Source: Mobula hypostoma
Lineage: Eukaryota
DNA: 64,000 nucleotides
Direction: 5' to 3'
Assembly (NCBI RefSeq): GCF_963921235.1
Contig: NC_086097.1
Location: 49,540,001-49,604,000, forward strand
The translations under genes and the position numbers were made by a program. Shown here piece by piece: positions 15,535-56,194 of this stretch (position 1 is the first letter of the stretch; each line of letters begins with the position of its first letter). The notes below the pieces were generated by a model. It made no database searches. It was not told the origin of the DNA and worked only from the letters and a program-made list of their open reading frames with translations.

Positions 15535-16300
15535 AGTTCAAGTTTTAACTGTCATTCAATCATACATAAATACAAACAAACAAGCGAAACAGCATTACTC
15601 CAGGGCCAAAGTGCAAAACACAGTACCAACAGTCATAAACAGCAAAAGGTTCTTATAACACATATATGACAGCAGTAAAAAAGTCCCACATGAAAAAATA
15701 TAGTCCAAGTCCTCGAGACCATGTATGTTGCAGCAGTCTGCAGTTGAACACAATACATATTGTTTTCTGCTGAGCAACCATGGAGGGGGGGGTCAGGACC
15801 AACTCCAGCTTAGATGTTGCACCACATCGCCTCCGGCACTCCAGTGGAGCACCGACTCTGTCTCCCCCGGGCGGCTGCAAACAGGCGACACCACGGCTTG
15901 AGGCCAAGACCTCACGATGACTGAGGCCGGGCAGCTCTCCCACTGTTCGCCAATAAACCAATGAATTGTACTTGTAGCATTCTTCACCACCAATGTCAAA
16001 CAGGATCTTGCAATGACAAGAAAAGTCACTCAGATGATCACTCACTGTTAGACTGCACACCTCCTTCACACACCAATGTCTCTCTGCCACAGGCAGCTTC
16101 ACGGTCTGCACCAAGTCCACCTCCTTCAGTTTCTCTGCCAACGAGTAACTTGCTGATGGGGTAGACCCATAGTACTTGAAGTTTTTAATGTCCAGCAGGG
16201 TCTTGTAATTGTAAAAAAAAAAATGATTAAAAAGACAATAATACCTTTGGTTGACCCTGTAAAAGCCATTGCGTCTGAGTACATCAGCATCTTATGGAAG
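15535..16300 (-). repeat. About 750-bp interspersed repeat (LINE-derived, non-autonomous); second copy at about 32860-33600
   Basis: The two copies are colinear and give similar spurious ORFs (15653..16141 and 33210..33530). Confidence 0.7.
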
Positions 16301-24380: not shown

Positions 24381-24433
24381 TTAAATGGATTGGTGTTGGA
24401 AAATCAAGGGAGTCTATGATTCAACTTTTCTAA
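24381..24433 (+). CDS. ADSS1: ADSS1 last coding exon (IKWIGVGKSRESMIQLF*)
   Basis: Polypyrimidine tract ending tttcag; the C-terminus KWIGVGKSRESMIQLF is typical of vertebrate ADSS; TAA at 24431-24433. Confidence 0.96.
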
Positions 24434-25429
24434 GTACATAACTGGACACCATTGGATAATTTGAACAACTATTGTATTTAAAGGAATGTAACTGATTGCT
24501 TTATTGTTACAATAATCCTGATACTGTGTAAAATATAATTATTTCACAATTTCAATTGTGTATATATAACCAATAATGAGTCTTTATAATTGCAGAAAGA
24601 AAATACCTAAAATACTATTCTTACTGTTTATGTTCATTTTAAAACAAAGTATGGCATTGAATGCAATTTCCTTTAAAAGTTGAATGAAAGACATGTAACA
24701 CTCATGATTGGAGCAATATCATTAAAACCAGTGCACAATTTATGTTCTGATGAAGGGTCTTGGCCCGAAATGTCGACTGTACTCTTTTTCCATAGACGCT
24801 GCCTAGCCTGCTGAGTTCCTCCAGCAGTTTGTGTGTGTTACTTGGATTTCCAGCATCTGCAGATTTTCTCTTGTTCACAATTTATGTTTTTAATAGTTTA
24901 TTCTTAAATCATACATTTGTATCTACCTTTTAAAATAGTGAACTAATATGGGATAAAAACGCATGATTTGCAGTGTTGGATTTGTGTACTGTTAGTGCTG
25001 CTTGCAATGACTTGCACAGAAAATCATCATGATACCAGTCTTGTGGGATGAAAATTCTACACAGATCATTACTTTTTTTTAAAAGTGAACCTATAGAATG
25101 ACATTTTTGTAGTTTACCATAATGAAAAGAAAATGTTTAATATAAATAATAATAGCTTCATAATTATTTGCAATAGGTAATCATTCACATGAAAATGTAA
25201 AATATTTAACTGATGAAAAATTAGTCTATGGGTGTTAAGTTGAACTTTTTATTAGACACAAATTAGTCAGAAACATTGATACTCGTCTTTTTGCGGAAGC
25301 TGTTGATCTTTCTGAAGTACAGAGATGGTGCTGTTATTTCCAAGTGCCCTGTAAGATATGTTAAGCAAAGGCAGAAATGTATGACTTGAGATTATGTAAC
25401 ACCTCAGTGAATCAAGTTTCACTTGTCTG

Positions 25430-25613
25430 CTAGTTCTTACTTACGTCTGGGTTAATGTTGTATGATGAATCATATTCTGTCTTCCAGCGATAAGTATCGG
25501 GTTCCCCATATACATCTTTAGGAATTCTTTTAGGTGTCTCACTTGATAGTTGCAAATTACTGTAAGGGCTAACTTTACAATTTAATTCTTCAATTTTTCT
25601 TGCATAATCTTCA
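25430..25613 (-). CDS. Unknown gene, last exon with repeat copy 2 (…RIPKDVYGEPDTYRWKTEYDSSYNINPDVSKN*)
   Basis: ttatag acceptor; phase 2; TAG at 25432-25430; minus-strand AATAAA near 25253-25248. Confidence 0.75.
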
Positions 25614-26235
25614 CTATAATGTTTATTAAACAAACAGTAATTAATGAACAAATTTTGTCCTAATAATTTAAGTATTAGTACATTTCTGAATAACTTGTTC
25701 ATTTATTTAACGATAATCACAGGGCAATTTACAATGACCAATTAACCTACCTGGTACAGCTTTGGACTGTGGGAGGAAACCTGAGTACCCAAGGAAAACC
25801 CATGTATTCCACGGGGAGGACGTACAGAGACTCCTAACAGTGCCAGAATTGTACCCCGAACTCCAGAAGACCCCCAGCTGTAATCGTGTCTCACTAACCA
25901 CTATGCCACCATGCAGCCCATTATATTTTCCAATTGTTTTTAAGGCTTCAGGATTCAATTATTGCAAACCTAAACATAATTATCAGGCTTTGAATAGAAG
26001 GTATGTTCAAAATCAAAATATGATTTTGAATCTGCTGCAAATGACAACTATGATGTTGTATTTGTTAAATCTCATCTGCTGATATCAGTGGTAACACTGG
26101 CAGATATTCACCAGAGATGTATACGTTAATCTTCTCAATTAGTGCTGACATTTCTTCATCAGAAATATAAAGAACCTATTCCAGAATAATGAAAATTTTC
26201 CAGATGAAATATGCAACTGAACCAAAATCTCTTAC

Positions 26236-26282
26236 TTGGACATGGAAGAACATGTGGCAAGGTTTGAAAGAAATGGAGTACT
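26236..26282 (-). CDS. Unknown gene, exon E (STPFLSNLATCSSMS)
   Basis: ttgtag and gtaaga boundaries; 47 nt; phase 0-2, exactly bridging exon D to the last exon. Confidence 0.6.
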
Positions 26283-27377
26283 CTACAATGTAAATTCTAA
26301 TAAATATTTCACCTATTCTCATTATGTGCAGTATATAATACAAACTCAAACCACACAAATAAAAGTAACTGCAATTCAGTTAATGAATTCAGGTGATAAA
26401 TCCTTCAACATAAACATCTGGAACTGTGTCTGAATTGAGAGAACTATTCCCAGTATGTTCCCAAATGCCCCGGTGGCATCCATGGGATTTCCTGTCCCAC
26501 CAATAGTTCAGATTCTCCCAGAGGAAATTAGAGTAATTTACCACCAAAATAAATAGTGGTAATCATTGACGTTGACCTTAAACCCCATAAGGGCCGGTAG
26601 TACCAGAGCAGACACAAAGAAACATTCATTACTACTCACATTTGGGTGCAAAATCAGTGCTCCTCCATGCTGAATATGGATGGATAGCAAAGGCACTTGA
26701 TGTACTCTGGGTATGGGACTCCAATGTTTATTGACAAGGGATATTTTAAAAGTCAATCCTGGAATGTGAGCTAAGCTTGAGGAGTCACGTATAATTTTTT
26801 TTAAGAAATTCCTTTCTCTCTCTCTCTCACACCTTATTAATTCTCCCCTACGCACCTGTCCCCCTTACTGCCAAGAACACTTCCACCGCCAAATATTACT
26901 CTTCCAGTAGTTTAGGTAGTTCCTTTGGAACTCATCAAAATCCTGTTCCCACCCATCAAGTAACTGTTGCTTCCTGTCAAGTTTGACTGGAAGATTAATA
27001 AAATTCCTGGAATCAAATAGTTTATTACTCATTTCAGTGCTCACCAGAGGTCTATTAGTTAAAGCTTCAAACACATTTTAAATTCTACAAAAAGTGGCAT
27101 CAATGCAGCCTACCTGACAGTAATTTTACCTCCACAAAGTTCAATGGTCCCTAGGGGTGGCACTATAGGAGTCTGTAGAAAGGAAGTTTCAACAAAGGTT
27201 CTTCTAATGCTATTGAAATTGCCCAAATCACTCACTCTATTGTACTTCAGTACTTTCCAAAGCCACCTTCATACCTTTATAAATGTTCTTTAATCTCAAG
27301 ATCATTAATCAGTGTTTATGTTTTAAATATGTGATGTTCTCATTCATTTAAAAGCTCCTTAAATGCATCAACAATTA

Positions 27378-28922
27378 TAGCAATACACAACAGAATGCTG
27401 GAGGAGCTCAGCAGGTCAGGCAGCATCCATGGAAGTGAACAAACTGTCAATATTTCAGGCTGAGACCCTTCTTCAGGGCTGGAAAGGAAGATGCCAGAAT
27501 GAAGAGGAGTGGGGAGGGGAAGGAGGACAGTTCCAAGCCTCCCCCCAACTCTTCCTCCACTATATTGGTGCTGCTTCATCCCTCATGCTGAGCTCATTAA
27601 TTTAATTACTTTTGCCACCAACTTCCAACCTGCCCTTAAATTCACTTGGTCCATTTCTGACACCTCCTTTCCCTATCTCAATCTCTCTGAATCCATCTCT
27701 AGAGACAAACTGTCAATCGACATATCATAACCCTACCGACTACCACAGCTTTCTTGACTATACCTCTTCCACCCTATTTCCTGTAAAAATGTTATTCCCT
27801 TTTCTCAGTTCCTTCCTCTCTACCACTTCTGTTCCAGGATGAGGTTTTCTTTTCCAGGACATCAGGGATGTCCTTCTCCAAAGAACAGGGTTTCCCTTTC
27901 TCCACCACTGATGCTGCCTTCACCCACATCTCCTACATTTCCTGAATATCTACACTCACACCATCTTTCTAGTGATAGAGTTCCTCTTGGCCTTACCTAC
28001 CATCCCATGAGCCTCCACATCCAAAACATCATCCTCTGCAACTTCTGCCCTCTCCAAAGGGATCCTACTACCAAGCACATCTCTACCTACCCCTGCCTTC
28101 TCTGGTTTCCACAGGGATTGCTCCTTCCATGATTCCTTTATCCATTCGTTCCTCAACACTAATCTCCCTCCTGGCATTTATTCCCGCAAGCAGCCAAAGT
28201 GTTAAACCAGCCCATTCACCTCCTCCCTCACCTCCAATCAGGGTCCAAAACAGTCCTTCCAGGTGAGGCAACACTTCACCTGAAAAATCTGCTGGGGTCA
28301 TCTATTGTGTCTGCTGCTGTCGATGCGGCCTCCTCTATATTGGTGAGATCCATCGTAAATTGGGGGACCGTTTCATGAACAACTATGCTCCATCTGCCAA
28401 AAGTGGAACTTCCCCGGTGGCCAAAAATTTTAATTCCGATTTTCATTCCCATTCCAACCTGCCGATCCATGGCCGTCTCTTGGGCTATGATCACCTTATA
28501 TCCCATCTGGGTAGCCCCCACTGAAGGCATGGATATCAATTTCTCCTTCTCATAAAAATAAATTTCCCTTGCCCTCTGCTCTTCTCCCATTCCCCACTCT
28601 GGCCCTCATTCCCCTCTTCTCAACTGCCTATCACCTCCCCAATGCCCTTCCTCCTATGATCCACTCTCTTCTCCTATTAGATTCCCTCTTCTCCAGCCCT
28701 TTATCTTTCCCACCCACCAGACTTCACCTGTCACCTTCTACTATCCTTCCCCTCCCCCCACCATTTTATTCTAGCATCTTCTCCTTCCTTTCAAGTCCTG
28801 AAGAAGAGTCTCGGCCTGAAATATTGCTTGTTCATTTCCATAGATGCTGCCTGATCTGCTGAGTTCCTCCAGCATTTTGTGTGTTGCTTTGGATTTCCAG
28901 CATCTGCAGAATCTCGTGTGTT
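27378..28922 (+). mobile_element. Degraded Penelope-like element (RT C-terminus plus GIY-YIG endonuclease) with an inverted 5' terminal repeat
   Basis: VIYCV…CGLLYIGE GIY-YIG remnant at about 28296-28348; terminal repeat inverted at 27380-27500. Confidence 0.8.
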
Positions 28923-31900
28923 TAACATAAAAATTAGTTTAAAAAAAAGCTTTATTGTTCCATGTATGTCGACATATACAGTGAGATGCATCCGTTGCAT
29001 CAAATCTAATCAGCAAGCATTGTGCTGGGCAGTCTGCAAGTGTCCCCATGCTTCCAGTGCCAACATGCCATCCCCACAAATCCCTACATTTTGAAGTACG
29101 TTAGGGGTATTAGTAAATCTAATAACTGCACTGTCTTGATGCTGAATGGGGCAGAGGAGCCACAATGGTGCTTAACAGTGACTCCTTTGAGCTCATCTAT
29201 GGAAACTACCTCTTTTTCCTTTTCAAGGTGGATGGGGTTCTGTTAGAGACCCCAACCTGGAGTTACACACTGTTCTCGGTTCTTTGCAGTGTTGGGACCC
29301 ACTCCCGGGACTTACGACCGGCTGCTTTCCAAAATCCCAAGGACGCAGCCTAGAAGATGAGGGCACCTTCAGGGTTCTGAGGCTTCGTGGCCCCGTGGAC
29401 AAGCTGATTGTATGCTGGTACCACTAATTGAAGCATTGCAGGAGAAAACAAAACATTGGGACAGTGGCTCTGTACCCGGCAAATCTCCCTCTCTCGTTGG
29501 TTGGGGAGAGTTTGTAGCTGATTCTTGAGTCGAAGAACTCGGAGAAAAGAAACGTTGTGATAGACTTTATCACTGCAAATCAACAAGTTGTTTTATTATG
29601 CCTCCCCTCTTGCTGTGGAAGGGGGACACCTCCCTTTCCCTTTATTAGGGAGCGAAAGCACCTGTTGTAAGTCAAATTCTCAGGTGGACGATTAGTTTTT
29701 GTTGTTCTGCAGATCACGATCTTTATTGGGGGCTTTGCAATTGCTTGCTTGGTGAGTGGAGGGTGCTGATGCTTTTTGCTGATGTGGGGGTAAGGAAGTT
29801 GTTGCTTTGCTGCTGCTTGTGCAAGGGTATGGGGGGGCTTTGAGATTCTGATGGTTTTACTGTCACTCATTCTTTGGGGCACTCTTCTGTTTTCATGGAT
29901 GTCTGCAAAGAACCAGAACTTCAGGCTGTATATTGCATACTCTGATATTAAATGGAACTAATGGACTGTATATCTAAGATAACACCTAATCATAAATATA
30001 AAAAATACTTGGATACAACACAAAACACGGAATGATTTTTTTAACGTCAAGCAAACAATAGAATAAACTGTTGAAACCATGTTTGCCATCAGTCAATCCC
30101 ACTTCAGATTCACTCCAGTGCATATTTGTTGATTTATCTGAGATGCAAACTTGGCTCCAAACACTCTTAGGTGGGATATAACAAATTCCTTCAAACTATT
30201 CCAGTGGGGGAGAAATCTGGAAGTCATCCATCACGGCCCAGCCAATATTTATCTCTCAACGAAAATAACTGAGAACAGATTTCTGGCTGCAAATCGGCAG
30301 CTGTATTTCCAAAGTTGTGTTTAAAAAGTGTTTCATTGGGTGCAAAACACTGTAGGACAATCTAATAGTGAAGTGAAATTTGAGGCATAAATGCAGAGTT
30401 AAAGTAGTCCACTAAACTTGATAAACAATACCTGGAGATCTGGCACTAAGTTTTTGCAGACCAATTGAAAAGAAGGCAGAATAGCTTTTGGGGTCATCAA
30501 AAAGATATATCGCCACTACCCCACAGCACTCCCCTTGGTGGCAAAACCTAATTAAAAGTGCAGGAGTAAAAATATATTTACAACTTCCTGCATCTGCAAT
30601 TTTATTTTAAGTTTTATTTTCACTGAATATGCAGGGGCATGCATGCTCAAGATAGGAATAGGAAAACAGGAAAATGCAGCTTAGTGCTAGAACTAAATGC
30701 CTACCAAAACAGATCCAACATCAAGGAAGGTAGAGGAAGACACTTAAAATAGCAGAGGAGCAGAGTCTGCTGTAATCAAAGATTTTCACAACATGCCACA
30801 GAGCCTACCCTGATAGAAACAGATATTTAGAGATAGATCAAAGCTGATGGTATCAAAGGAAGACTTAGAAAAGGGTGTATGAATGAAGATGGTTCAGGCA
30901 ACATTCTTTCAATTCATCCTAGATAGGGTGGATGTGGAGTGAATGTCTTGTATAGTAGGGGAGTCTAGGACCAAAGAGCACAGTCTCAGAATCGAGGGAT
31001 GTCCATTTAGACAAAGATGAAGAGAAATTTGTTTAACCAGAAGGTGGTGAATCTGTGGAATTCATTGCCACAGTTGGCTGTGGAGGCCAATTCACTTGGT
31101 ATACAGAGGTTGATGGTTCTTGATTACACAGAGTGTCAAAGGTTATAGGAGACTGCAGGAGAATGGAGTCAAGAGTGATAATAAATCTGCCATGATAGAC
31201 TGGTGGAACAGACTCGATGAACCAAATGGCATAATTCCGTTCCTATGTCGTATGGTCTTATCCCTTGCCATCATCTTGATTAGTAAGGGCTATCTTACTT
31301 GGCAAATACAGCAATCCCAGGAAGATCTAGGCTTCAAAATAAATTGCTTGAAATGATGAAACAGCAGGGCTGACTGTATTCTTTCGCCACCATTACCAAC
31401 CTTTTCCACATACCTTCTTTCACTTCCTGACACCAAACTATGATAGTATTTAAGTAATAGGTGGGAATATTGGTACATGGTCTACATATGAATCCACTGC
31501 CAAAATGGAATGTCGACAGAGAGATTAAGTCAGTGAGAGAATAAATGACTTAAGGAAAACTGTGGGACTGTTCTATGACAGAAGAAGTTTAGAGTGCTTA
31601 GAGTTAAGAAGAATCTGATGTGAAGTTTTTATTGTACTTAATCCTCTGAGTAAATTGCAAGATCAGTGGCAGTGCCTCTTTCAGAAGTCGACTTGTTAAG
31701 TCCAGGTCTTTCCCAGAAATGCTGCCCAAGCTCACTAGCTCAAATGAATGAAAATGTTCTATAAGTATCTTCTGTCTACCCACTCAGGAGACATTAATTA
31801 CTACATATCAGAAGGAGAAGTTCAGATCTAAAATCAAATGGACAAAATGGAAATGATCCTATCCTGACCCCAGTGCTAATGCTGGGACTTCCCTAGTTAT

Positions 31901-33889
31901 CCAACGATAGCTTAAGCCTATGTCAGCCATGGCATCTTCTATTCTATCCTGTTTCCCCTGGCTCCAGCTGCCCTTGTGCTACTCCAGTGACTCACAGAGT
32001 CAAGCTGGGTAGTGCAAATTTCCACAGGATTCCCAGTTGGAAAGCTGGGAAATCTGCCCGAGAGGCTGCACGCTACTACTACATTTTAACTCACTGCTCC
32101 ACAGAGCAGGGCAGGTGAATCGCTTAGTTACTTATCCAGCACAGCACACTTTCAGTGCACACTAGTTTCTCCCACTGTAGGAAACAATCACTCCACATCC
32201 ATTCTTTCTAGGCCTTTTAATATTCGATGGGCTTCAAAGCGATCCTCCCATATTCTTCTAAACTCCAGCAAATAGAGGCTCTGAGCCATCAAACGCTCCT
32301 CATATGTTAACACTTTCATTCCTGGGATCATTCTCCTGAATCTCCTCTACACCCTCTCCAATGCCAGCACATCTTTTTCTTAGATAAGGGGCCCAAAACT
32401 GTTCACAATACTCCAAGTGTGGTTTGACCAATGCCTTATAAATTCTCAGCATTATATCCTTGCTTTTGTATTCAAAATGAATGCTAACACTATATTTGCC
32501 TTCCTTACCACAGACTTAACCCTGCACAAGGACTCCCAAGACACTTAGCATCTCTGATTTTTGAATTTTCTCCCCATTTAGAAAATAGTTCACACCTTTA
32601 TTCCTGCTACCAAAGTGCATGACCATACACTTCCCTATAGTATATTCCATCTGCCACTTTGTCCATTCTCCCAATCTAAGTCCTTATGCAGACACCTTGT
32701 TTCCTCAACACTACTACCCCTCCATCTATCTTTGTATTGTCCACAAATTTAGCCACAAAGACATCAACTACTTAATTAAAGCCCACATCCCTTGAATGAA
32801 TTAAAAACAAGGGAATAAAGGGTTATATGATTAGTGCAGGAAACTGGTGCTGAATTAACAGTTAAGTTCAAGTTCAAGTTTAGTGGTCATTCAACCATAC
32901 ATGAATGAGCCAAACAAAACAGTATTCTTCTAGGGCCAAGGTACAAAACAATACCAACAGTCACACACAGCACAGGGCACACTTAGCACATAAAGGATAG
33001 TAGTTCGATACAGTCACACAGAAAATATGTAGTCCAAGTCCCTGCGTCCATCAATGTTTCAGCAGTCTACAGTTGAACACAGTATAGTTTGTCTTCTGCT
33101 GAATGAACAGTAGAGGGCAGCACTGATGCCATCAGCATGAATGCATGCCTTACTGACTCTAAGCCCCGCTCTTGGATGGTTGCAAACAGGCAGCAGCGTG
33201 GCTTGATGCCTAGTCCTCACTACAACTAAGGCCACGCAGCTCCCTCGCCATCAGTGACACCAGTGAACCAGACTTGCAGCATTCCACATTACCAATGTCC
33301 AACAGGGTCTTGCGATCACAAGAAAAATGACTAAGATGATCACTCACTGTTAGACTGCACACCTTCTTCGCACACAAACTCCGGCACCTCTCTGTTGCAG
33401 GTAGCAACATGGTCGGCACCAAGTCCAGCTCCTGCAGTTTCTCCACCAAAAAGCAACTCACTGATGGGGTAGACCTGCAGCACTTCACATTCTTAATGTC
33501 CAGCAGGGTCTTGTGATTGTAAAAATACATTTAAAAAAGACAATAACACCTTTGTTTGTCCCCACAGAAGCCACTGCATCCAAGTGTGCCGCCATCTTAC
33601 CAGAAGACCAGATTAGCCATGATCTTACAGAATGGAAAATTAGACACGGTAGGGGTGGGGGGAATGGCTTACTCTTACATCTGTTTCCTATGTTCTTAAT
33701 GAGGGAGACTAATCCAAAATGCAGCAAGAGCTGGACAATATTAAGATGGACAGAATAGTAATTCATCCTAATATGAAAGTTCAGTTTTGTAGACAAAATT
33801 ATGTGATCTACGTTTGCCTATTTCTCAAATAACTGACATGTTTTTCATTGTTATTGCATTTTGAACATACATATTAGTCTTCTACTTAC

Positions 33890-33970
33890 AGCTGGACTAT
33901 GCTGGCACCCAATGCACGTTGCTTTTTCTTGTTTTTGTTCTTCTTCCGTTTTCCAATTAAAAGTAATACC
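33890..33970 (-). CDS. Unknown gene, exon D (GITFNWKTEEEQKQEKATCIGCQHSPA)
   Basis: ttgcag and gtaagt boundaries; 81 nt; phase 0-0; WKTE echoes the repeat. Confidence 0.62.
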
Positions 33971-35243
33971 CTGCAACATACATATGAAATAATATTAATC
34001 ATCCAAAGAGTTGGTATATGTCCAATTAGTGCTTCTAGTTCAGCTCTCTACATACAATTAGCAGTACCAGGGTGTGAGGCAGGGGGAATGGGAGCTAAAA
34101 TGGTGCAATCCACTGGATTTGTAATATGCTGTAAAATAAAAAAAAATTAAATTAATTTACTGCTATCACACAACAAGCATCTTTGAGGTATAGATCTAGA
34201 AAATTGATTCTTGAATTTTTACACTGTGGAGGCTATAATCCGGAGCAAAGAATAGTCTTGATATGGGGGTTCGATCTGAAAGGTCGACCATCCTTCTACT
34301 TCCACAAATACCTCCTACGTTCCTCCAGCAGTTTTCCTTTCTGGTAAATTTTTTAAATTAGTTGTACCACAATAGGCAGGTGAATTCAGGCTCTTTCCTT
34401 AGGGACACAGAAAAATCAAACACAATCAATTCATTGTCCATGTACACCATTCAATAGAGACATTTTTTTTAAAGCAGCCAGAATATTCAATCATGGTCTA
34501 TCCAAATATTTTTGTTTTACGTACATCTAGAAACAGGTTCCTACATTTTATGTGCAATTTTAATCACCTTTTTAAATTTAGCATTACAACTATTTATGTG
34601 CTGTTATCTCAATGTGCTGCTTAGTTTCTCAAGTCCCAGCTCTTGTTTAGACATAGTGAACAGAATTTTCCAAATTATTGTCCCGTCCCCGCAAAACTCT
34701 TTATGTCTTCTTATATTCTGTTATCAGCATTAACAGCTTAACCACTGAACTTGATCCTTGATGCAAATTTTAACTCTATTCCTCCAACTGCTGAACGCAT
34801 AGAGTGTAACACACTTGTAAAGAAAATCCCTTCATTTCAGATTATTTGTTAATGAATCTTCCTATTTAATGATTCATCTGGTAGTAAACTGTCCTTTATC
34901 CAAAACAAATCATTCTCAGCAGATGTCCCTTTTTGGACTCCAATGATCATCTATTGATGGCATATGTAAATACTAGTAGGAGGAGCTGATTTTATAATAA
35001 ACAATAAATTGGCTTTGTTCCTGTTTATTCTATAAATATTCATGTAATTAAAACTGGACTGAATTTTAAGTACACCAATTTACATTTAAATTCTGTGCAA
35101 AAATTATTAATATAATCATTATAATGGCAACCATCACACTGCTTAGAAAAGCAGCCCAAATGAATATCTAGTCACGTAATTGCAAGAAAAAATGTATAGC
35201 TAATCATACACCTTGTGTGTAGAGAATAGTTAATTGAATTCGG

Positions 35244-35927
35244 AGCCTCCATTGGTCCGGGTCATCTATGAATAGCTGTCTACGTGATGCCCAAGCCGCT
35301 ACGCACGCCAGAGCAGTATGATATGGAGAGTAGGCTGTTGTCCATACAGCAGGCCCACCTTCTCCACATAGCTGAAGAATTCAAAGGAATGGCAGAGACC
35401 AATACGGTTTGGCACTAGTAGTGTTGCAGGATTTGCCAGTCAGCATTGAACTCAACATGGGACTGCCTTTGGGACTCCAGCTCCAGATTTTTCTTCAAAG
35501 TTTACTCACGAAGCCTGACGAAGGGTTCCAGCCCGAAACGTTGACTGATTGTTTCCACAGATGCTGTCCGACCTGCTGAGTTCCTCTAGCGTGTTGTGAG
35601 TGTTACTCACGAAGCCTTCCCCAGGAGTGGGTATAGCAGCAAGACAGCGAAGGTTTGAGATCAGAGTTTTCCTTCTCCTAACTGAGCTGCCAACTGTAAC
35701 CGATGAGCCCATCTGCCCAAAGCAACTGGTTTTAAAGCACTACTAACCCGCCGTTTCCCCTTCTTCTGTCAATGTAAACAGTTCCATTGGACTTAGGAGC
35801 TAAGCTACATGTGAATACCAGGAGCTGGACATGGTTGTCAGAGGCTATTTGAGATGCTCGCCATTGGGAGCTTTTAATAGGTAGTGGGAGCTTATCCCCA
35901 CTACCTCACCTGGCTATAACAATCTTA
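35244..35927 (-). repeat. About 600-bp repeat resembling an RTE 5' leader; other copies at about 10410-10996 and 39728-40310
   Basis: Three colinear copies; the minus strand has GGCAGCTCA…TAGGAGAAGGAAAACTC, which I associate with RTE 5' UTRs (inference). Confidence 0.6.
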
Positions 35928-35980
35928 AAGAACCTTAAATTCAGTGCATTATTCTCACTTAAAAAGTGCACTTCACTTAC

Positions 35981-36176
35981 ATCCCTTGGATCGTGATATG
36001 TGTTGTAGTCCCCATGATATGTAGTCATCCAACGATTGATGTCTGGTCTGCCATATGCATCTAATGGAACCAGCTTTTGAGGTCCAGCTGATGTTGAGAC
36101 ACAGCATAAATTGGATGGAGTATTTGAGTGCACTTCAAAGTTATTCAATTGTTCTGTAGTTCCCATACATTGCCCT
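35981..36176 (-). CDS. Unknown gene, exon C with repeat copy 1 (…VPLDAYGRPDINRWMTTYHGDYN…)
   Basis: ttacag and gtaagt boundaries; 196 nt; phase 2-0; inside ORF 35906..36274; the motif recurs in the last exon. Confidence 0.75.
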
Positions 36177-36834
36177 CTGTAATAATTATTAATACTGTAT
36201 ATCAGATAGCATGCAGACATGGTCAACACTCCCCATCCCCAACATGGATTCATCTGGCCATCCCATCCCTTCATTTGGTTCTACCAATCACTAAACCAGC
36301 TTGCACCTCACCCCTCTCTTTCACTTCTATATACTGGCTATCTTCCCTCTACATTCCCGGTACTGAAGCTGCTTGACCAACTGAATTATTCCAGCAGTTT
36401 ATTTTTTACTGCTGGTGTGTCTGACCAATACGTGGCATCACATATGCTTGCAATGATGTCCCACAGTCAGCATTGCAGTTTTGAATGCATGACTGTCACA
36501 AAATACCAGGGCTACAAACCACTGAAATTCTCAATCAGGCACAAATTATAGGGTCTTGGTTATGATTTCAATATTTTGATCACAATATCTAACAACTCAC
36601 ACTCACACTCCAATGGTAAAAATACTTCTAGCATCATTTTCCCTTTGTTACATTACTGTTTTCAACTTCCTTGTTACAACATCACTTCCTCAGTGATAAT
36701 TCTGCATCCTTCTGTTAGGTCATGGAGCTGGGGCTTGATAAAGGCACCAGATCATGTACAGAGAGTGACCAAACACTCGGAAGATCATTGTGTTCCTTCC
36801 TTTCCCAAGTTTCCCTTCCCCTTCGTAGCGTTAC

Positions 36835-36900
36835 TTTATGCAGTTAGTCAATGGGGGATGTATCCGTTCATCAGTTTTGGAATGGTTTTGGAACTTGTGT
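36835..36900 (-). CDS. Unknown gene, exon B (HKFQNHSKTDERIHPPLTNCIK), possibly optional
   Basis: ttacag and gtaacg boundaries; 66 nt; phase 2-2, so it preserves the frame whether included or skipped; weak pyrimidine tract. Confidence 0.45.
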
Positions 36901-37278
36901 CTGTAACATGACACTCAGGACTTCCAAACTCTTTTGTGCAAGGGCTATTTTGTGATTTTATTTTGCAATAAAAAAATGAAAAAAAGTTCCAGTGTATATG
37001 ATGAATAATCTCTTATCGGGCTTCCTGCCAGGTACAGGTATTGATTTTAACTGATGTTTCCAAAGGTGGCAGAGTTTGCATCAAAACGTCAGTTAAAATT
37101 GATACTTGCACTTGGCTGAAAGCCCGACAAGAGTTTACTCACTAATATGTTTTTAGCGCACCTAAATGGCTCCAGTTCTACTTCTAGCCAGTCTTACGCC
37201 AAATGTTTTGTTACACAGATAAACCAATTGACCTATTCACAAAAAGATATTGTCAGAAAGTATTGCATTGAAGAAATG

Positions 37279-37822
37279 CACCCAGTGGCTACTTTATTAG
37301 ATACATCTGTATACCTGCTCGTTAAAGCAAATATCTAAGCAGTCAATTATATGGCAGCAACTCAATGCATAAAGGAATGCAGACATGGTCAAGAGGTTCA
37401 GTTGTTGTTCAGAACAAACATCAGAATGGGGAAGAAGTGTGATCTAAGTGACTTTAGCCATGGAGTGATTGCTGGTACCAGTCGGTGATTTGGGTATCTC
37501 AAAAACTGCTGATCTCCTGGGATTTTCACGCACAACTTCTCTAGAGTTTACAGAGATTGGTGTAAAACACTAAAAACATCCAGTTCTGTGGGTGAAAATG
37601 TCTTATTAATGAGAGAGGCAGAGAATGGCCAGACTGGTTCAAACAGATGGGAAGGTGGAAGTAACTTAAATAACCACCGTGTAACAACAGTTGCAGGTGG
37701 AAGAGCATCTCTGAATGCACAACACATTGAACCTTGAAGTGGATATGCTACAGCAGCAGAAGACCATGAACATACACACTCAGTAGCCACTTTATTTGGT
37801 ACAGGTTGTACCTAATAAAATG
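37279..37822 (+). mobile_element. Tc1-family non-autonomous repeat; related pieces at 4647-4703 and about 41115-41470 (minus)
   Basis: Recurrent CACTCAGTGGCCACTTTATTAGGTAC-like terminal motif. Family assignment is inferred. Confidence 0.6.
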
Positions 37823-37880
37823 TATATCTTTCCAGAATCCCAAAAATCTATTGAAATTACATTAAGTTCTTCGTACTTAC

Positions 37881-37948
37881 CCCGCAGTATACACGTTTGC
37901 AATTGAGGGACAGGAAAAATCCATCTTTTCTATTGTCACGTTAGCAGA
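37881..37948 (-). CDS. Unknown Mn-motif-like gene, exon A (SANVTIEKMDFSCPSIANVYTAG; candidate ATG at 37924)
   Basis: Minus-strand ttttccacctag acceptor and GG|gtaagt donor; open frame; ATG in a good Kozak context (AAGATGG). Confidence 0.6.
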
Positions 37949-44039: not shown

Positions 44040-44520
44040 AAATAGCAACAATTGGCCCGTAAACACTGTCCCTGGGGGAGGCGTCGGGCGGGCGGGGCAA
44101 AGGGGACAAACCCCGCCCCCGTACAAGGGGCGCTCTGTGATCACGTGGTCTCCGTTCTTTAACTTGCTTGCGTTTCGGTGTTAAAGGTCACGTTTCGCGC
44201 GGGAAGGGGGCGCCTGGACTCGGTTTGTGTTAGTATGACGAAGAGAGCCAGCCCGTTCGGGGACATCGCGCCGCTGCAGTGGAAAGTCTACGTGACCCAG
44301 AGAGAGCTGAGTGAAGGCGTGCTTGGGGAGAAGTACAAGCGGGAAGTGTATGGTGAGTAGGTGTTGTGACTCGCGTTATGGAGGCCGGCTCCGGTCCGGT
44401 CCGGCCTTACACCAGGTCGCGGGGAGGTCACCAGCTGGCTCCTGGAAACCGTTCACTGAGGTGAGGATGCTACAGACTGACTCATCTCCCTGGCGGCCTC
44501 GGTCTGCTTGTGGAAGGGAG
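44040..44520. promoter_or_regulatory. CpG-rich promoter of SIVA1, probably bidirectional
   Basis: Sharp local CpG/GC enrichment around SIVA1 exon 1; GGGCGG boxes at about 44085-44120; E-box TCACGTG at 44141-44147. Confidence 0.7.
44235..44352 (+). CDS. SIVA1: SIVA1 apoptosis regulator, exon 1 (MTKRASPFGDIAPLQWKVYVTQRELSEGVLGEKYKREVY)
   Basis: Closely resembles the SIVA N-terminus (human MPKRSCPFADVAPLQLKV…); G|gtgagt donor; 118 nt. Confidence 0.93.
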
Positions 44521-48600: not shown

Positions 48601-49153
48601 CACATTTCCATGGCCTGAAAAGGCCTTTTTCCGTTCTTGATGTATTCCATTCTTCCTGCACCTCTTCCAGTGTGAGTATTTACCTGTATTGACTTTTTGA
48701 GCAACAGCCCCATACATTGTCTTGCCATGTGCTCATTTCCATGATTTTTCTTCGATCTCCCACCCCTTCATAGTTGAACAGCCCATAATAGCTTCTGGCA
48801 TTTTCTTTAGGATTGTTCCAGAGACTGCTAAATTCCCTGCAGCTCATCATTATTCCTTTCACCCTTTAAGAATATTCTCCTCACTATCAGCAGTGCTTGA
48901 ATTTGCCATTCAAACAAATCACTACTACGTTTAATAATGGAAAAAAAAACCCTGCCTAATCCCTGTGATGTACTGGTTAGAAATTTCGCAAACATTCATA
49001 TCTGGATACAATTGTGATTGAGCTTGTGTGGAAATTGTGCCTGGCCTGTTTCCTACATGAAAAATGTTAATGTGACAGCTAAATCTTTTTGATAACGAGT
49101 AGCTGTTTTGTATTTACTTAAAATTGAACTTGTGTCCTAATTTTTATTTCCAG

Positions 49154-49375
49154 AAAAAACCAAGAGCTTGCTGTTCAATGGAGCCCAGTCTTTTATGGGA
49201 GATTTATGGACTGGTAACTTGGATGAAAAGTATACGCTGAACCCCATACTTGTTGAGGATAACTACATGAAGGAACCTGAAAGTATTTGTAACAGTGATC
49301 ATGACTTGCTCCAAGGGCAGACATTTCTAGGACAAAATGGACAACTTTTAAGGGGTTTATCGTGTTTGCAAAAAT
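49154..49375 (+). CDS. SIVA1: SIVA1 exon 2 (EKTKSLLFNGAQSFM…LLQGQTFLGQNGQLLRG…)
   Basis: ttccag and gtaagt boundaries; 222 nt; SIVA-type motifs KTKxLLFxGAQ and GQxxxGxxGxL. Confidence 0.92.
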
Positions 49376-51746: not shown

Positions 51747-54700
51747 TCAGAACCCAGCCTTCCCTCCATACCCCCTGACCCCTGTAGCCACAAGGGCCAT
51801 ATCTAACTCCCTCTTAAACATAGCCAATGAACTGGCCTCAACTGTTTGCTGTGGCAGAGAATTCCACAGATTCACCACTCTCTGTGTGAAGAAGTTTTTC
51901 CTAATCTCGGTCCTAAAAGGCTTCCCCTCTATCCTCAAACTGTGACCCCTCGTTCTGGACCTCCCCAACATCGGGAACAATCTTCCCGCATCTAGCCTGT
52001 CCAATCCCTTTAGGATCTTATACATTTCAATCAGATCCCCCCTCAATCTTCTAAATTCCAACGAGTACAAGCCCAGTTCATCCAGTCTTTCATCATATGA
52101 AAGACCTGCCATCCCAGGAATCAATCTGGTGAACCTTCTTTGTACTCCCTCTATGGCAAAGATGTCTTTCCTCAGATTAGGAGACCAAAACTGCACACAA
52201 TACTCCAGGTGTGGTCTCACCAAGGCCTTGTACAACTGCAGTAGTACCTCCCTGCTCCTGTACTCGAATCCTCTCGCTATAAATGCCAGCATACCGTTCG
52301 CCTTTTTCACCGCCTGCTGTACCTGCATGCCCACTTTCAATGACTGGTGTATAATGACACCCAGGTCTCGTTGCACCTCCCCTTTTCCTAATCGGCCACC
52401 ATTCAGATAATAATCTGTTTTCCTATTTTTGCCACCAAAGTGGATAACTTCACATTTATCCACATTAAATTGCATCTGCCATGAGTTTGCCCACTCACCC
52501 AACCTATCCAAGTCACCCTGCATCCTCTTAGCATCCTCCTCACTGCTAACACTGCCACCCAGCTTCGTGTCATCCGCAAACTTGGAGATGCTGCATTTAA
52601 TTCCCTCATCCAAGTCATTAATATATATTGTAAACAACTGGGGTCCCAGCACTGAGCCTTGCGGTACCCCACTAGTCACCGCCTGCCATTCTGAAAAGGT
52701 CCCGTTTATTCCCACTCTTTGCTTCCTGTCTGCTAACCAATTCTCCACCCACACCAATACCTTACCCCCAATACCGTGTGCTTTAAGTTTGCACACTAAT
52801 CTCCTGTGTGGGACCTTGTCAAAAGCCTTTTGAAAATCCAAATATACCACATCCACTGGTTCTCCCCTATCCACTCTACTAGTTACATCCTCAAAAAATT
52901 CTGAGATTCGTTAGACATGATTTTCCTTTCACAAATCCATGCTGACTTTGTCCGATCATTTCACCGCTTTCCAAATGTGCTGTTATCACATCCTTGATAA
53001 CTGACTCCAGCAGTTTCCCCACCACCGACGTTAGGCTAACCGGCCTATAATTCCCCGGTTTCTCTCTCCCTCCTTTTTTAAAAAGTGGGGTTACATTAGC
53101 CACCCTCCAATCCTCAGGAACTAGTCCAGAATCTAACGAGTTTTGAAAAATTATCACTAATGCATCCACTATTTCTTGGGCTACTTCCTTAAGCACTCTG
53201 GGATGCAGACCATCTGGCCCTGGGGATTTATCTGCCTTCAATCCCTTCAATTTACCTAACACCACTTCCCTACTAACATGTATTTCACTCAGTTCCTCCA
53301 TCTCACTGGACCCTCTGTCCCTTACTATTTCTGGAAGATTATTTATGTCCTCCTTAGTGAAGACAGAACCAAAGTAATTATTCAATTGGTCTGCCATGTC
53401 CTTGCTCCCCATAATCAATTCACCTGTTTCTGTCTGCAGGGGACCTACATTTGTCTTTATCAGTCTTTTCCTTTTTACATATCTATAAAAGCTTTTACAG
53501 TCCGTTTTTATGTTCTCTGCCAGTTTTCTCTCATAATCTTTTTTCCCCTTCCTAATTAAGCCCTTTGTCCTCCTCTGCTGAACTCTGAATTTCTCCCAGT
53601 CCTCAGGTGAGCCACTTTCTCTGGATAATTTGTATGCTACTTCTTTGGAATTGATACTATCCCTAATTTCTCTTGTCAGCCACGGGTGCACTACCTTCCT
53701 TGATTTATTCTTTTGCCAAACTGGGATGAACAATTGTTGTAGTTCATCCATGCAACCTTTAAATGCTTGCCATTGCATATCCACCGTCAATCCTTTAAGT
53801 GTCATTTGCCAGTCTATCTTAGCTAATTCACGTCTCATACCTTCAAAGTTACCCCTCTTTAAGTTCAGAACCTTTGTTTCTGAATTAACTATGTCACTCT
53901 CCATGTTAATGAAGAATTCCACCATATTATGGTCACTCTTACCCAAGGGGCCTCTCACGACAAGATCGCTAATTAACCCTTCCTCATTGCTCAAAACCCA
54001 GTCCAGAATAGCCTGCTCTCTAGTCGGTTCCTCGACATGTTGGTTCAAAAAACCATCCCGCATACATTCCAAGAAATCCTCTTCCTCAGCACCTTTACCA
54101 ATTTGGTTCACCCAGTCTACATGTAGATTGAAGTCACCCATTATAACTGCTGTTCCTTTATTGCACACATTTCTAATTTCCTGTTTAATACCATCTCCGA
54201 CCTCACTACTACTGTTAGGTGGCCTGTACACAACTCCCACCAGCGTCTTCTGCCCCTTAGTGTTACGCAGCTCTACCCATATCGATTCCACATCTTCCCG
54301 GCTTATGTCCTTCCTTTCTATTGCGTTAATCTCTTTTTTAACCAGCAACGCCACCCCACCTCCCCTTCCTTCATGTCTATCCCTCCTGAATATTGAATAT
54401 CCCTGAACGTTGAGCTCCCATCCCTGGTCACCCTGGAGCCATGTCTCTGTGATCCCAACTATATCATAATCATTAATAACAATCTGCACTTTCAATTCAT
54501 CCACCTTATTACGAATGCTCCTTGCATTGACACATAAAGCCTTCAGGCGCTCTTTTACAACTCTCTTAGCCCTTTTCAATGCTTGCCCTGGATTTGTCGG
54601 CCTGCCACTTTTACTTTTCTCCTTTGTACTTTTTGCTTCTACGCTCACTTTACACCCCTCTGTCTCTCTGCACTGGTTCCCATCCCTCTGTTGTGAACTA

Positions 54701-54759
54701 ACCTCCTCACGCCTAGCCTCTTTAATTTGATTCCCACCCCCCAACCATTCTAGTTTAAA
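51747..54759 (-). pseudogene. CR1 ORF2 (APE endonuclease plus reverse transcriptase), broken by one frameshift near 52900
   Basis: NARSI, ITETW, YRPP, GDFN and SDH (endonuclease); YRPVSL, LDFQKAFD, GVPQGSVLGP and FADD (RT); split between the 617-aa and 375-aa ORFs. Confidence 0.92.
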
Positions 54760-55685
54760 GTCACCTCAGTAGCCCCCGCTAATCTCCCTGCCAGGATATT
54801 GGTCCCCCTAGGATTCAAGTGTAACCCGTCCTTTTTGTACAGGTCACGCCTGCACCAATAGAGGTCCCAATGATCCAAAAACTTGAATCCCTGCCCCCTG
54901 CTCCAATCCCTCAGCCACGCATTTATCCTCCACCTCATCGCATTCCTACTCTCACTGTCACGTGGCACAGGCAGTAATCCCGAGATTACTACCTTTGCGG
55001 TCCTTTTTCTCAACTCCCTTCCTAGCTCCCTATATTCTTCTTTCAGGACCTCATCCCTTTTCCTACCTATGTCATTGGTACCTATATGTACCACGACCTC
55101 TGGCTCCTCACCCTCCCACTTCAGGATATCTTGGACACGATCAGAAATATCCCGGACCCTGGCACCAGGGAGGCAAACTACCATCCGGGTCTCTGGACTG
55201 CGTCCACAGAATCGTCTATCTGACCCCCTTACTATCGAGTCCCCTATCACAACTGCCCTCCTCTTCCTTGCCCTACCCTTCTGAGCTACAGGGCCAGACT
55301 CTGTGCCGGAGGCAGGGCCACTGTCGCTTCCCCCCGGTAAGCTGTCCCCTCCAACAGTACTCAAACAGGAGTACCTGTTGTTAAGGGGCACAGCCACCGG
55401 GGTACTCCCCATCACCTGCCTTTTCCCCTTCCCCTTCCTAACTGTGACCCACTTGTCTGCCTCCCGTGGCCCCGGCGTGACCACCTGCCTTCCACTCCTC
55501 TCTATCACCTCCTCGCTCTCCCTGACCAGACGAAGGTCATCGAGCTGCAGCTCCAGTTCCGTAACGCGGTCCCTTAGGAGCTGCATCTCGATGCACTTGG
55601 CGCAGATGTAGACGTCCGGGAGGCTTGGAGACTCCAGGGCCTCCCACATCCGACGCCGAGAACAGCAAACTGCCCTCACAGTCAT
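54750..55685 (-). CDS. CR1 ORF1p: zinc finger / leucine zipper plus SGNH esterase domain
   Basis: YICAKC and a leucine-zipper-like LRDRVTELELQL; SGNH blocks GDSIVR, HIGTND and DGLHLN; first ATG at 55685. Confidence 0.88.
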   Translation of the reverse strand: MTVRAVCCSRRRMWEALESPSLPDVYICAKCIEMQLLRDRVTELELQLDDLRLVRESEEVIERSGRQVVTPGPREADKWVTVRKGKGKRQVMGSTPVAVPLNNRYSCLSTVGGDSLPGGSDSGPASGTESGPVAQKGRARKRRAVVIGDSIVRGSDRRFCGRSPETRMVVCLPGARVRDISDRVQDILKWEGEEPEVVVHIGTNDIGRKRDEVLKEEYRELGRELRKRTAKVVISGLLPVPRDSESRNAMRWRINAWLRDWSRGQGFKFLDHWDLYWCRRDLYKKDGLHLNPRGTNILAGRLAGATEVTLN

Positions 55686-56194
55686 AATGCCCCTCTCCTC
55701 AAATAGCAACAGAAAATGAATGTCAAACCTTCCTCGCCTCGCCCGCTTCCGCCTAAGCCCGGTGAGCCGAAGCCCTTAAGTCTTCACTCTGCTCCCGGCT
55801 CACTCCGCCGCCCGCAAACTACGCTGCCCGCTCTATGAGGCTCTGTTCCTTTTAAATCTGCCGCGCTGCACTGCCCGACGTCACACGCCTGCGCAGTCCC
55901 GCCTCTTAGAAAGCCGTTGGAGAAAAAAAAAAACGAAAATTTCAAAAATCTCTTTCTCGGCACTCCCACTCAGACTCTCAGACTCCTTCTTCAAGATGGA
56001 GTGATCTCCTACTGCACTTGTTGGGCCACGGTGGCAAAAGTCCTTGGGCAATGTAGTTCTGAGGGCTCTTTCCATCTGCCTCCCCCTGCCCACATGAATC
56101 TAATACTGTTCAGCAGTAAGAACCTTTCCTCCTGTTAAAGCTTTGCATTTAAATGTATCATGATATGAAGTTAAGAATAATTCATTTTTTGACG

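Follow-up and report, generated by a model that had tools for sequence, protein, structure and literature searches.

The Mn motif of microtubule lumen proteins has been defined in several overlapping ways. In the available extracts of the literature it consists of a T/S and an F/Y six residues apart (motif positions 6 and 12), with a short helix at the tubulin intradimer interface (PMC8144581), and it is defined likewise in bioRxiv 10.1101/2022.09.29.510157. The same extracts give the core of MEME motif 2 as [TS][NT]YRS[ED][FY] (PMC3280300), a looser Mn unit signature, [TS]-[TS]-x(4)-[YF], and an NWE consensus, [ILV]-L-I-G-N-W-x-E, that lies N-terminal to two Mn units (both PMC10973386). Here we describe a small gene of the ray Mobula hypostoma, LOC134346664, in which a module of about 35 aa containing T-x-Y-x-x-x-Y occurs twice. 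The gene lies in a 64,000 nt stretch of contig NC_086097.1 of the 3.48-Gb M. hypostoma assembly (hereafter the window), on the minus strand between ADSS1 and SIVA1; all coordinates given below are window positions.

An earlier note on this DNA proposed a spliced protein-coding gene between ADSS1 and SIVA1, and the present analysis confirms it. The gene is not, as that note held, unrecognised. When the exon-3 peptide was used in a word-indexed search, the only protein found, at 100% identity, was isoform X5 of LOC134346664, which carries the RefSeq name "uncharacterized protein"; isoforms X1–X5 were then obtained by cluster look-ups. Proteins related to it in other species have been deposited as hypothetical proteins. 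Neither LOC134346664 nor LOC122553566, chiPu_0008832, scyTo_0018923, AOXY_G22673/AOXY_G20729 or HHUSO_G17416 is mentioned in the literature full texts searched. The gene is already predicted, yet unstudied, and all its relatives are named only "uncharacterized" or "hypothetical".

Exon structure and internal duplication

The five RefSeq isoforms were mapped on the window. Isoform X4 (P0002, 187 aa) has six coding exons with start phases 0, 2, 0, 0, 2, 0; the joined exons reproduce P0002 exactly, and all splice sites are canonical. The features are as follows, all on the minus strand.

Exon A, 37881..37924, minus strand: 44 nt; ATG at 37924-37922, donor GTAAGT, encodes MDFSCPSIANVYTAG.
Exon B, 35981..36176, minus strand: 196 nt with start phase 2; contains the R1 copy of the module (motif at 36067-36002).
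Exon C, 33890..33970, minus strand: 81 nt, start phase 0; encodes GITFNWKTEEE...CIGCQHSPA.
Exon A', 27114..27172, minus strand: 59 nt, start phase 0; encodes TPIVPPLGTIELCGGKIT.
Exon B', 25445..25613, minus strand: 169 nt with start phase 2; contains the R2 copy of the module (motif at 25522-25457); the donor at 25444 is GTAAGT.
Last intron, 25349..25444, minus strand: 96 nt; retained in X5 and in the earlier gene model, giving ...NPDVSKN and then a stop.
Exon C' and 3' untranslated region, 24848..25348, minus strand: 15 nt of coding sequence at 25348-25334 (GTWK and TAA); AATAAA at 25253-25248 and 24902-24897.
Exon 2 of the earlier model, 36835..36900, minus strand: outside the conserved gene, in none of the five RefSeq isoforms.
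Exon 5 of the earlier model, 26236..26282, minus strand: outside the conserved gene, in none of the five RefSeq isoforms.
Terminal coding exon of X1–X3, 15656..16201, minus strand: 182 aa, a dispersed repeat inside an ADSS1 intron.

Each coding exon of X4 has a counterpart outside the ray. Exon A is used by X1, X4 and X5, and the N-terminus of P0008, a bamboo-shark protein, can be aligned with it. Exon B is 62% identical to Chiloscyllium plagiosum LOC122553566 (P0004) over residues 4-107, exon C is near-identical in the same species, and exon A' (acceptor ctttctacAG, donor GTaggc; used by X4 and X5) has a counterpart in a second bamboo-shark protein, chiPu_0008832 of C. punctatum (P0012). Copy R2 is conserved in P0012, in a partial protein of Scyliorhinus torazame (P0013) and in sturgeon proteins, and the GTWK end is common to the same set. 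The locus is almost certainly a genuine protein-coding gene, because exons B, C, A', B' and C' have shark counterparts and their splice sites and phases are intact.

The first description of the gene, a six-exon model of 205 aa, had four of its six exons right; its exons 2 and 5 and its stop were wrong. Its six minus-strand segments do have AG upstream and GT downstream at every internal boundary and, once joined, give 618 nt that read as an open frame of 205 aa closed by TAG, and both motif peptides lie in the exons to which they had been assigned. Nothing in the shark proteins P0004, P0008 and P0012 corresponds to its exons 36900-36835 and 26282-26236: the shark N-terminus aligns across the exon A-exon B junction without the former, and P0012 has exon A' in place of the latter. 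The conserved 59-nt exon 27172-27114 was missing from the model, and its stop is the product of reading through the GTAAGT donor at 25444, where the conserved form splices to 25348-25334.

The duplicated motif on which that description was built is real, and the repeat extends further than described, to the whole halves of the protein. Residues 1-107 and 108-187 of X4 align without gaps over 72 residues (E 3e-10, as a single comparison). Exons 1-3 and 4-6 have the same phase pattern (0,2,0 and 0,2,0), and in both units the intron that follows the module separates D from G (..DPRD|GITFNWK and ..NPD|GTWK). As judged from its sequence, LOC134346664 very probably arose when a three-exon unit was duplicated in tandem and the copies were fused, giving A-B-C then A'-B'-C', because the two units share the same phases and the two halves give an ungapped alignment of 72 residues. 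The 84-aa sturgeon protein is collinear with one unit, while the ray and sharks have the doubled form. From this distribution we infer an ancestral three-exon gene of ~84 aa, which would have undergone tandem duplication and in-frame fusion before the divergence of sharks and rays. Exon C would be the counterpart of the short terminal exon of the ancestral unit. The second copy appears to have retained an ancestral-like module, and the first copy to have diverged.

The module of about 35 aa that ends each unit can be written P-x-D-x-Y-G-x-P-x-x-x-R-W-x-T-x-Y-x-x-x-Y-N-x-(N)-x-D-G-(x)-T-(x-x)-W-K, with P, D, Y, G, P, R, W, T, Y, Y and D as the invariant columns over six aligned units. In the ray and two sharks the stretch D-V-Y-G-x-P-D-T-Y-R-W-K-T-E-Y-D-S-S-Y-N-[IM]-N-P-D-G-T-W-K is identical. 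BLASTP of the two motif-exon peptides against each other gave 14 identities in 33 residues (E 5e-09, again a single comparison). The similarity of R1 and R2 had been described as much clearer in protein than in DNA, and this does not hold, because over the 22-codon motif 12 of 22 residues are identical against 42 of 66 bases, with 15, 14 and 13 of the 22 identical at codon positions 1, 2 and 3, respectively. A second conserved stretch, [SH]-E-Y-A-R-x-[IV]-E-E-[LI]-[KN]-C, lies upstream of R2 in exon B', P0012 and P0013; the ray version is E-D-Y-A-R-K-I-E-E-L-N-C, with a helix predicted by AlphaFold2 at residues 128-137 (low confidence).

Isoforms X1–X3 differ from this structure at their 3' ends, where they splice from 33890 directly to the exon 16201-15656, which lies antisense in an ADSS1 intron. 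A 71% identical copy of that exon is present at 32984-33509. A genome search with it gave 4605 first-look candidates; all 40 that were scored matched, and 39 of these were elsewhere in the genome, at 74-77% identity. The 182-aa tail of X1–X3 probably does not belong to the real protein, and these isoforms are probably exonised-repeat models, because the exon 15656-16201 is a copy of a dispersed repeat. The Pfam family MANEC, found on the X1 tail at E 0.22, falls short of the cut-off and lies in this repeat-derived part.

Relatives, transcripts and neighbouring genes

A phmmer search of X5 (P0001) against 1.84 billion representatives, at a cut-off of E <= 0.001, returned four proteins: X5 itself, the X1–X3 cluster, C. 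plagiosum LOC122553566 (E 2.0e-36, 62% identity, residues 4-107) and the 84-aa sturgeon hypothetical protein. The last (E 1.4e-06, 54% identity over residues 130-168) matches R2 plus GTWK, and its cluster holds proteins from Acipenser oxyrinchus and Huso huso and one transcript-assembly open reading frame (ORF). A sturgeon transcript-assembly ORF of 164 aa (P0011) contains the 84-aa protein with 25 residues upstream and reads past ...RETL downstream, and may thus reflect an alternative or unspliced form of the sturgeon transcript.

A profile search (A3) of proteins of 18-186 aa found four at E <= 10 among 96 candidates, of which two were new, i.e., P0012 (129 aa) and P0013 (58 aa). The profile was built from three sturgeon sequences (P0010, P0009 and P0005), two Mobula exon translations and, as its first row, a fragment of P0008 that is 98% identical to P0012; the matches of P0005, P0001 and P0012 to it are therefore partly by construction. 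P0012 contains the R1 exon, the counterpart of exon 27172-27114, the R2 exon and the GTWK end, and P0013 contains R2 and GTWK. The shark models P0004 and P0008 end in unrelated tails. Among longer proteins, none of the 161 candidates from a word-indexed search reached E <= 10. The searches, which covered predicted proteins only, gave no relatives in teleosts, amphibians, birds or mammals.

In the whole 3.48-Gb Mobula genome, the sturgeon protein P0010 has no matches besides exon B' at E 1.0e-8 and exon B at E 2.56, and a search of that genome with X5 found no paralogue, the next matches having E > 1.6. By the predicted proteins, this is deep conservation of a narrowly distributed small gene, found in rays, sharks and sturgeons. 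The suggestion of a lineage-restricted or mammal-lost gene fits this picture, in that predicted proteins were found only in cartilaginous fishes and sturgeons.

Contigs were available from four sequencing runs of one study (also designated X1–X4, and distinct from the isoforms), with the library type not recorded. All four runs contain a contig joining the last two exons of ADSS1 (GT..AG), as cDNA would give. The contigs of runs X3 and X4 cover 24847/8-25348, starting exactly at the exon C' acceptor, and those of runs X1 and X2 cover 24848-25613, passing through the last intron and ending exactly at the exon B' acceptor at 25613. The other contig end lies ~50 nt past the minus-strand AATAAA at 24902-24897. 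These ends are a weak hint that the terminal exon exists, together with spliced and intron-retaining forms. The gene's own five junctions are absent among the joints listed (15 of 267). Cover in the bin with exon 2 of the earlier model (36600-37263) was 0.33, 0, 0.29 and 0 in the four runs, and in the bin with its exon 5 the cover was low and unspliced, with a contig of run X4 (26020-26270) crossing the donor; neither was counted as evidence.

The gene is arranged tail-to-tail with ADSS1 and lies upstream of SIVA1, both of which are on the plus strand. Adenylosuccinate-synthetase exons (PF00709) extend up to 22708, and 22709 is joined to 24381 across a GT..AG intron by one contig in each of the four runs. 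The last ADSS1 exon, 24381-24776, encodes the ...KWIGVGKSRESMIQLF end. ADSS1 ends near 24776, because the spliced contig leads into this last exon, which carries an ATTAAA at 24721. The 3' ends of ADSS1 and LOC134346664 are ~70-100 bp apart (contig ends at 24776 and 24848, respectively), and a repeat of very high depth lies between the two gene ends. Adenylosuccinate-synthetase loci number three in the genome (this window, C22:152-153 Mb and C82:13.7 Mb), the C22 copy having stops inside two matches. SIVA1 runs from 44235, with Siva (PF05458) exons at 44235-44354 and 49153-49359.

Further along the window, a retrotransposon of the long interspersed nuclear element (LINE) type occupies 51750-55775 on the minus strand and accounts for the strong C>G and T>A skew of 52-56 kb. 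It has three consecutive frames: the first is a GDSL-esterase/OSK-like ORF1, the second encodes an AP-endonuclease and the start of a reverse transcriptase, and the third the remaining reverse transcriptase. Its second reading frame is broken at least once, because the reverse transcriptase is split over frames 2 and 3.

Candidate functions of the repeated module

A microtubule-binding or lumen role would be the single best guess for the function of LOC134346664, and a tentative one, with most of the probability lying with other or unknown functions. Each module would then be an Mn-type microtubule-binding element: a short helix, capped by the invariant T and by the Y that follows six residues on, would dock on the luminal alpha/beta-tubulin intradimer interface as described for SPM1, FAP363 and SAXO1. 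The N-P-D-G turn after the core would form an aromatic beta-hairpin with extra contacts, and the two modules, ~106 residues apart, would bind two separate tubulin sites, stabilising axonemal or other stable microtubules. The resemblance to Mn units is drawn because T-x-Y-x-x-x-Y in every copy fits the published T/S...F/Y core definition: [ST]-x-Y-x-x-x-[FY] is present in all nine module copies of seven proteins, with the T, Y and Y columns invariant. The sturgeon protein has one such unit plus a doubtful N-terminal STLKTAF. Among the 30 ESM Atlas clusters nearest to P0002, 22 are unnamed and the eight named ones are all NWE-Mn lumen proteins (CFAP68, five clusters, 0.91; CFAP107, 0.90; SPAG8, 0.90; CFAP95, 0.89).

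Several results weigh against a microtubule-lumen role. The Mn core is of low information, with 60 occurrences among the 127,996 residues of the six-frame translation of the window (0.088 per 187 aa), and the looser [TS][TS]x4[YF], which occurs 0.35 times per 187 aa, is present in one of the nine module copies. The strongest conservation is found outside the core (D-x-Y-G-x-P, R-W and N-x-D-G-T-W-K), unlike the published Mn and NWE expressions. The modules number only one or two per protein and are widely spaced (units at residues 66 and 172 of P0002). None of the seven proteins has the SAXO-type N-terminal C.C..C.C cysteine cluster, and the cysteines of P0002 are scattered (C5, LCC at 38-40, CIGC at 99-102). 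The isoelectric point (pI), 5.1 in the ray but 8.9 in the sturgeon, is not consistently basic. An X-box (RFX) scan gave two matches in the window against 4.25 expected, none of them near exon A.

Database comparisons point the same way, and the proposed likeness to known lumen proteins gained no significant profile match. Pfam returned no families at E <= 10 for P0002, P0008, P0010 or P0011, and none for the exon peptides. By phmmer, no solved chain in the PDB matched P0002, and profile searches of the PDB (A1 and A2) found no lumen protein; what they did return was at chance level, i.e., SSU72 at 0.011, and designed propellers via Y-A-I-N-P-D-G-T-E-K hairpins. Comparison with the Mobula CFAP107 exons by hhalign gave a probability of 0.2-0.3% and E 0.2-0.3, which is not significant. 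The Atlas matches share 141-155 features, where 170 are typical of true family members, and a score of 0.9 is reached by 4-10 in 100 shuffled proteins; with the sturgeon protein, the Atlas gave no usable named match. The neighbour list is a weak lead only. Membership in the MAP6/SAXO or NWE-Mn family is not supported; a similar way of working is possible.

Structure prediction gave low values throughout. AlphaFold2 with a seven-row alignment modelled X4 at a mean predicted local distance difference test score (pLDDT) of 36.9 and a predicted template modelling score (pTM) of 0.18, with no helix on the T...Y core (low confidence), a further point against the lumen role. The Atlas model of the sturgeon protein has a pLDDT of 0.27, a value at which structure matches are meaningless. 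From these models, the isolated protein is most probably disordered. The extract of PMC13087473 describes low-confidence, unstructured predictions for SAXO6, an Mn protein, too, and the predicted disorder counts, with the core and the neighbour list, among the three grounds for the microtubule reading.

A bolder form of the microtubule proposal would see in LOC134346664 the first member of a family of microtubule-lumen proteins that is ancient among jawed vertebrates and has no name, combining an Mn-type helix with a tryptophan-rich N-P-D-G beta-hairpin. The family would be single-unit in sturgeons and doubled before sharks and rays parted, and teleosts and tetrapods would have lost it or have versions diverged beyond recognition. 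This is rather doubtful.

The modules can also be read as short linear motifs, in a conserved disordered protein that would bind a partner other than tubulin, e.g., as a phosphotyrosine docking site. YxxP represents a generic class of SH2-binding and Abl-type substrate motifs. It is present in every module copy, as [AV]-Y-G-x-P, and R-W...Y...Y...D-G-T-W would be a small aromatic beta-hairpin or WW-like unit. The best-conserved columns lie on either side of the Mn-like core (P, D, Y, G, P, R and W upstream, D-G-T-W-K downstream), low-confidence AlphaFold2 strands flank DPRDG and NPDG, and the profile matches the Y-A-I-N-P-D-G-T-E-K hairpins of designed pyrroloquinoline quinone (PQQ)-type propellers, single stretches not being significant. 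Nevertheless, YxxP comprises only four residues with two fixed positions, and the propeller matches are sums over repeats, none of which is significant by itself. Pfam gave neither a WW nor an SH2-ligand family nor any other, and there is no pointer to a specific partner. Overall, a linear-motif function of this kind is judged unlikely.

A much less probable possibility is that the gene is a divergent paralogue of the NWE-Mn seam-binding proteins (CFAP68, CFAP107, CFAP95 and SPAG8), with GITFNWKTEEE as a degenerate NWE and T-x-Y-x-x-x-Y as the Mn units. All eight named clusters among the 30 Atlas neighbours come from this family, N-W-K-T-E is conserved between ray and shark, and hhalign places P-D-T-Y-R-W-K-T-E-Y-D-S-S-Y-N-I-N-P-D on the Mobula CFAP107 Mn-unit exon, PHSWYFVSHYDEVINKRPN. 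The probability hhalign gives for that placement is 0.2%, however, and NW.E is absent: there is only NW..E, at residue 85 in the ray and C. plagiosum, positioned after the first Mn-like unit, and the sturgeon form is without the NW motif. The families PF22595, PF06608, PF22584 and PF15139 are unmatched at E <= 10, and the ray has its canonical CFAP107 and CFAP68 genes at other places in the genome.

Alternatively, the locus would be no functional coding gene, only a transcript particular to this lineage, with an open frame created by the annotation. This would fit the dispersed-repeat 182-aa exon ending three of the five RefSeq isoforms (X1–X3), the unrelated tails of the shark P0004 and P0008 models and the missing junctions among the listed joints. 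It is highly improbable given protein conservation between the ray and three sharks, and of the module as far as sturgeons, that far exceeds that of unconstrained sequence, the intact splice sites and phases, and a sturgeon protein that matches this locus alone in 3.48 Gb.

Significance and comparison with known systems

LOC122553566, chiPu_0008832, scyTo_0018923, AOXY_G22673/AOXY_G20729 and HHUSO_G17416 are orthologues of LOC134346664, and X4 is the supported model of the gene; three of its five RefSeq isoforms end in a transposon-derived exon. Whatever its function, the gene is a clean example of one that arose from tandem duplication and in-frame fusion of a three-exon unit. If the module does bind the microtubule lumen, it would represent a new and unusually well-defined variant of the loosely defined Mn class, a helix plus hairpin of 35 aa that is near-invariant between sharks and rays. 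Early jawed vertebrates would then have had components of axonemal or other stable microtubules that were lost from tetrapods and teleosts, and the sequence could aid in reading unassigned densities of fish or shark sperm doublets. Should it serve another function, LOC134346664 is an ordinary uncharacterised small gene.

With the MAP6/SAXO group (MAP6, MAP6D1, SAXO1/2, TbSAXO, SPM1, FAP363 and SAXO6/MDM1), the LOC134346664 product shares a T/S with an aromatic residue six positions on and a Y at +2. Like them, it is predicted to be disordered and is rich in aromatics and proline (8%). Proteins of that group are characterised by a short luminal helix at the intradimer interface and by protecting microtubules from cold and nocodazole. 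Members of that group carry 6-12 units with a period of ~32-40 aa, whereas here there are one or two units ~106 aa apart, the flanks are different, the N-terminal cysteine cluster is absent, the pI in the ray is acidic, and no Pfam, PDB or profile match connects the two.

The NWE-Mn seam proteins (CFAP68, CFAP107, CFAP95 and SPAG8/CFAP143) are similar in size (130-190 aa), in having two Mn-like units and in an N-W acidic stretch, and they are the only named neighbours in language-model feature space; CFAP161 is a further protein with the NWE module. The NWE consensus is unmatched here, however, the motif order is wrong, and significant sequence or profile similarity is lacking.

A third comparison is with the mammalian SPMIP proteins. 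LOC134346664 differs from them in that the searches detected no homology between its product and the solved chains of sperm lumen proteins. Its likeness to them, as they appear in the available extract of PMC10973386, is in kind: a short and predicted disordered protein of narrow distribution, with isolated Mn-like units.

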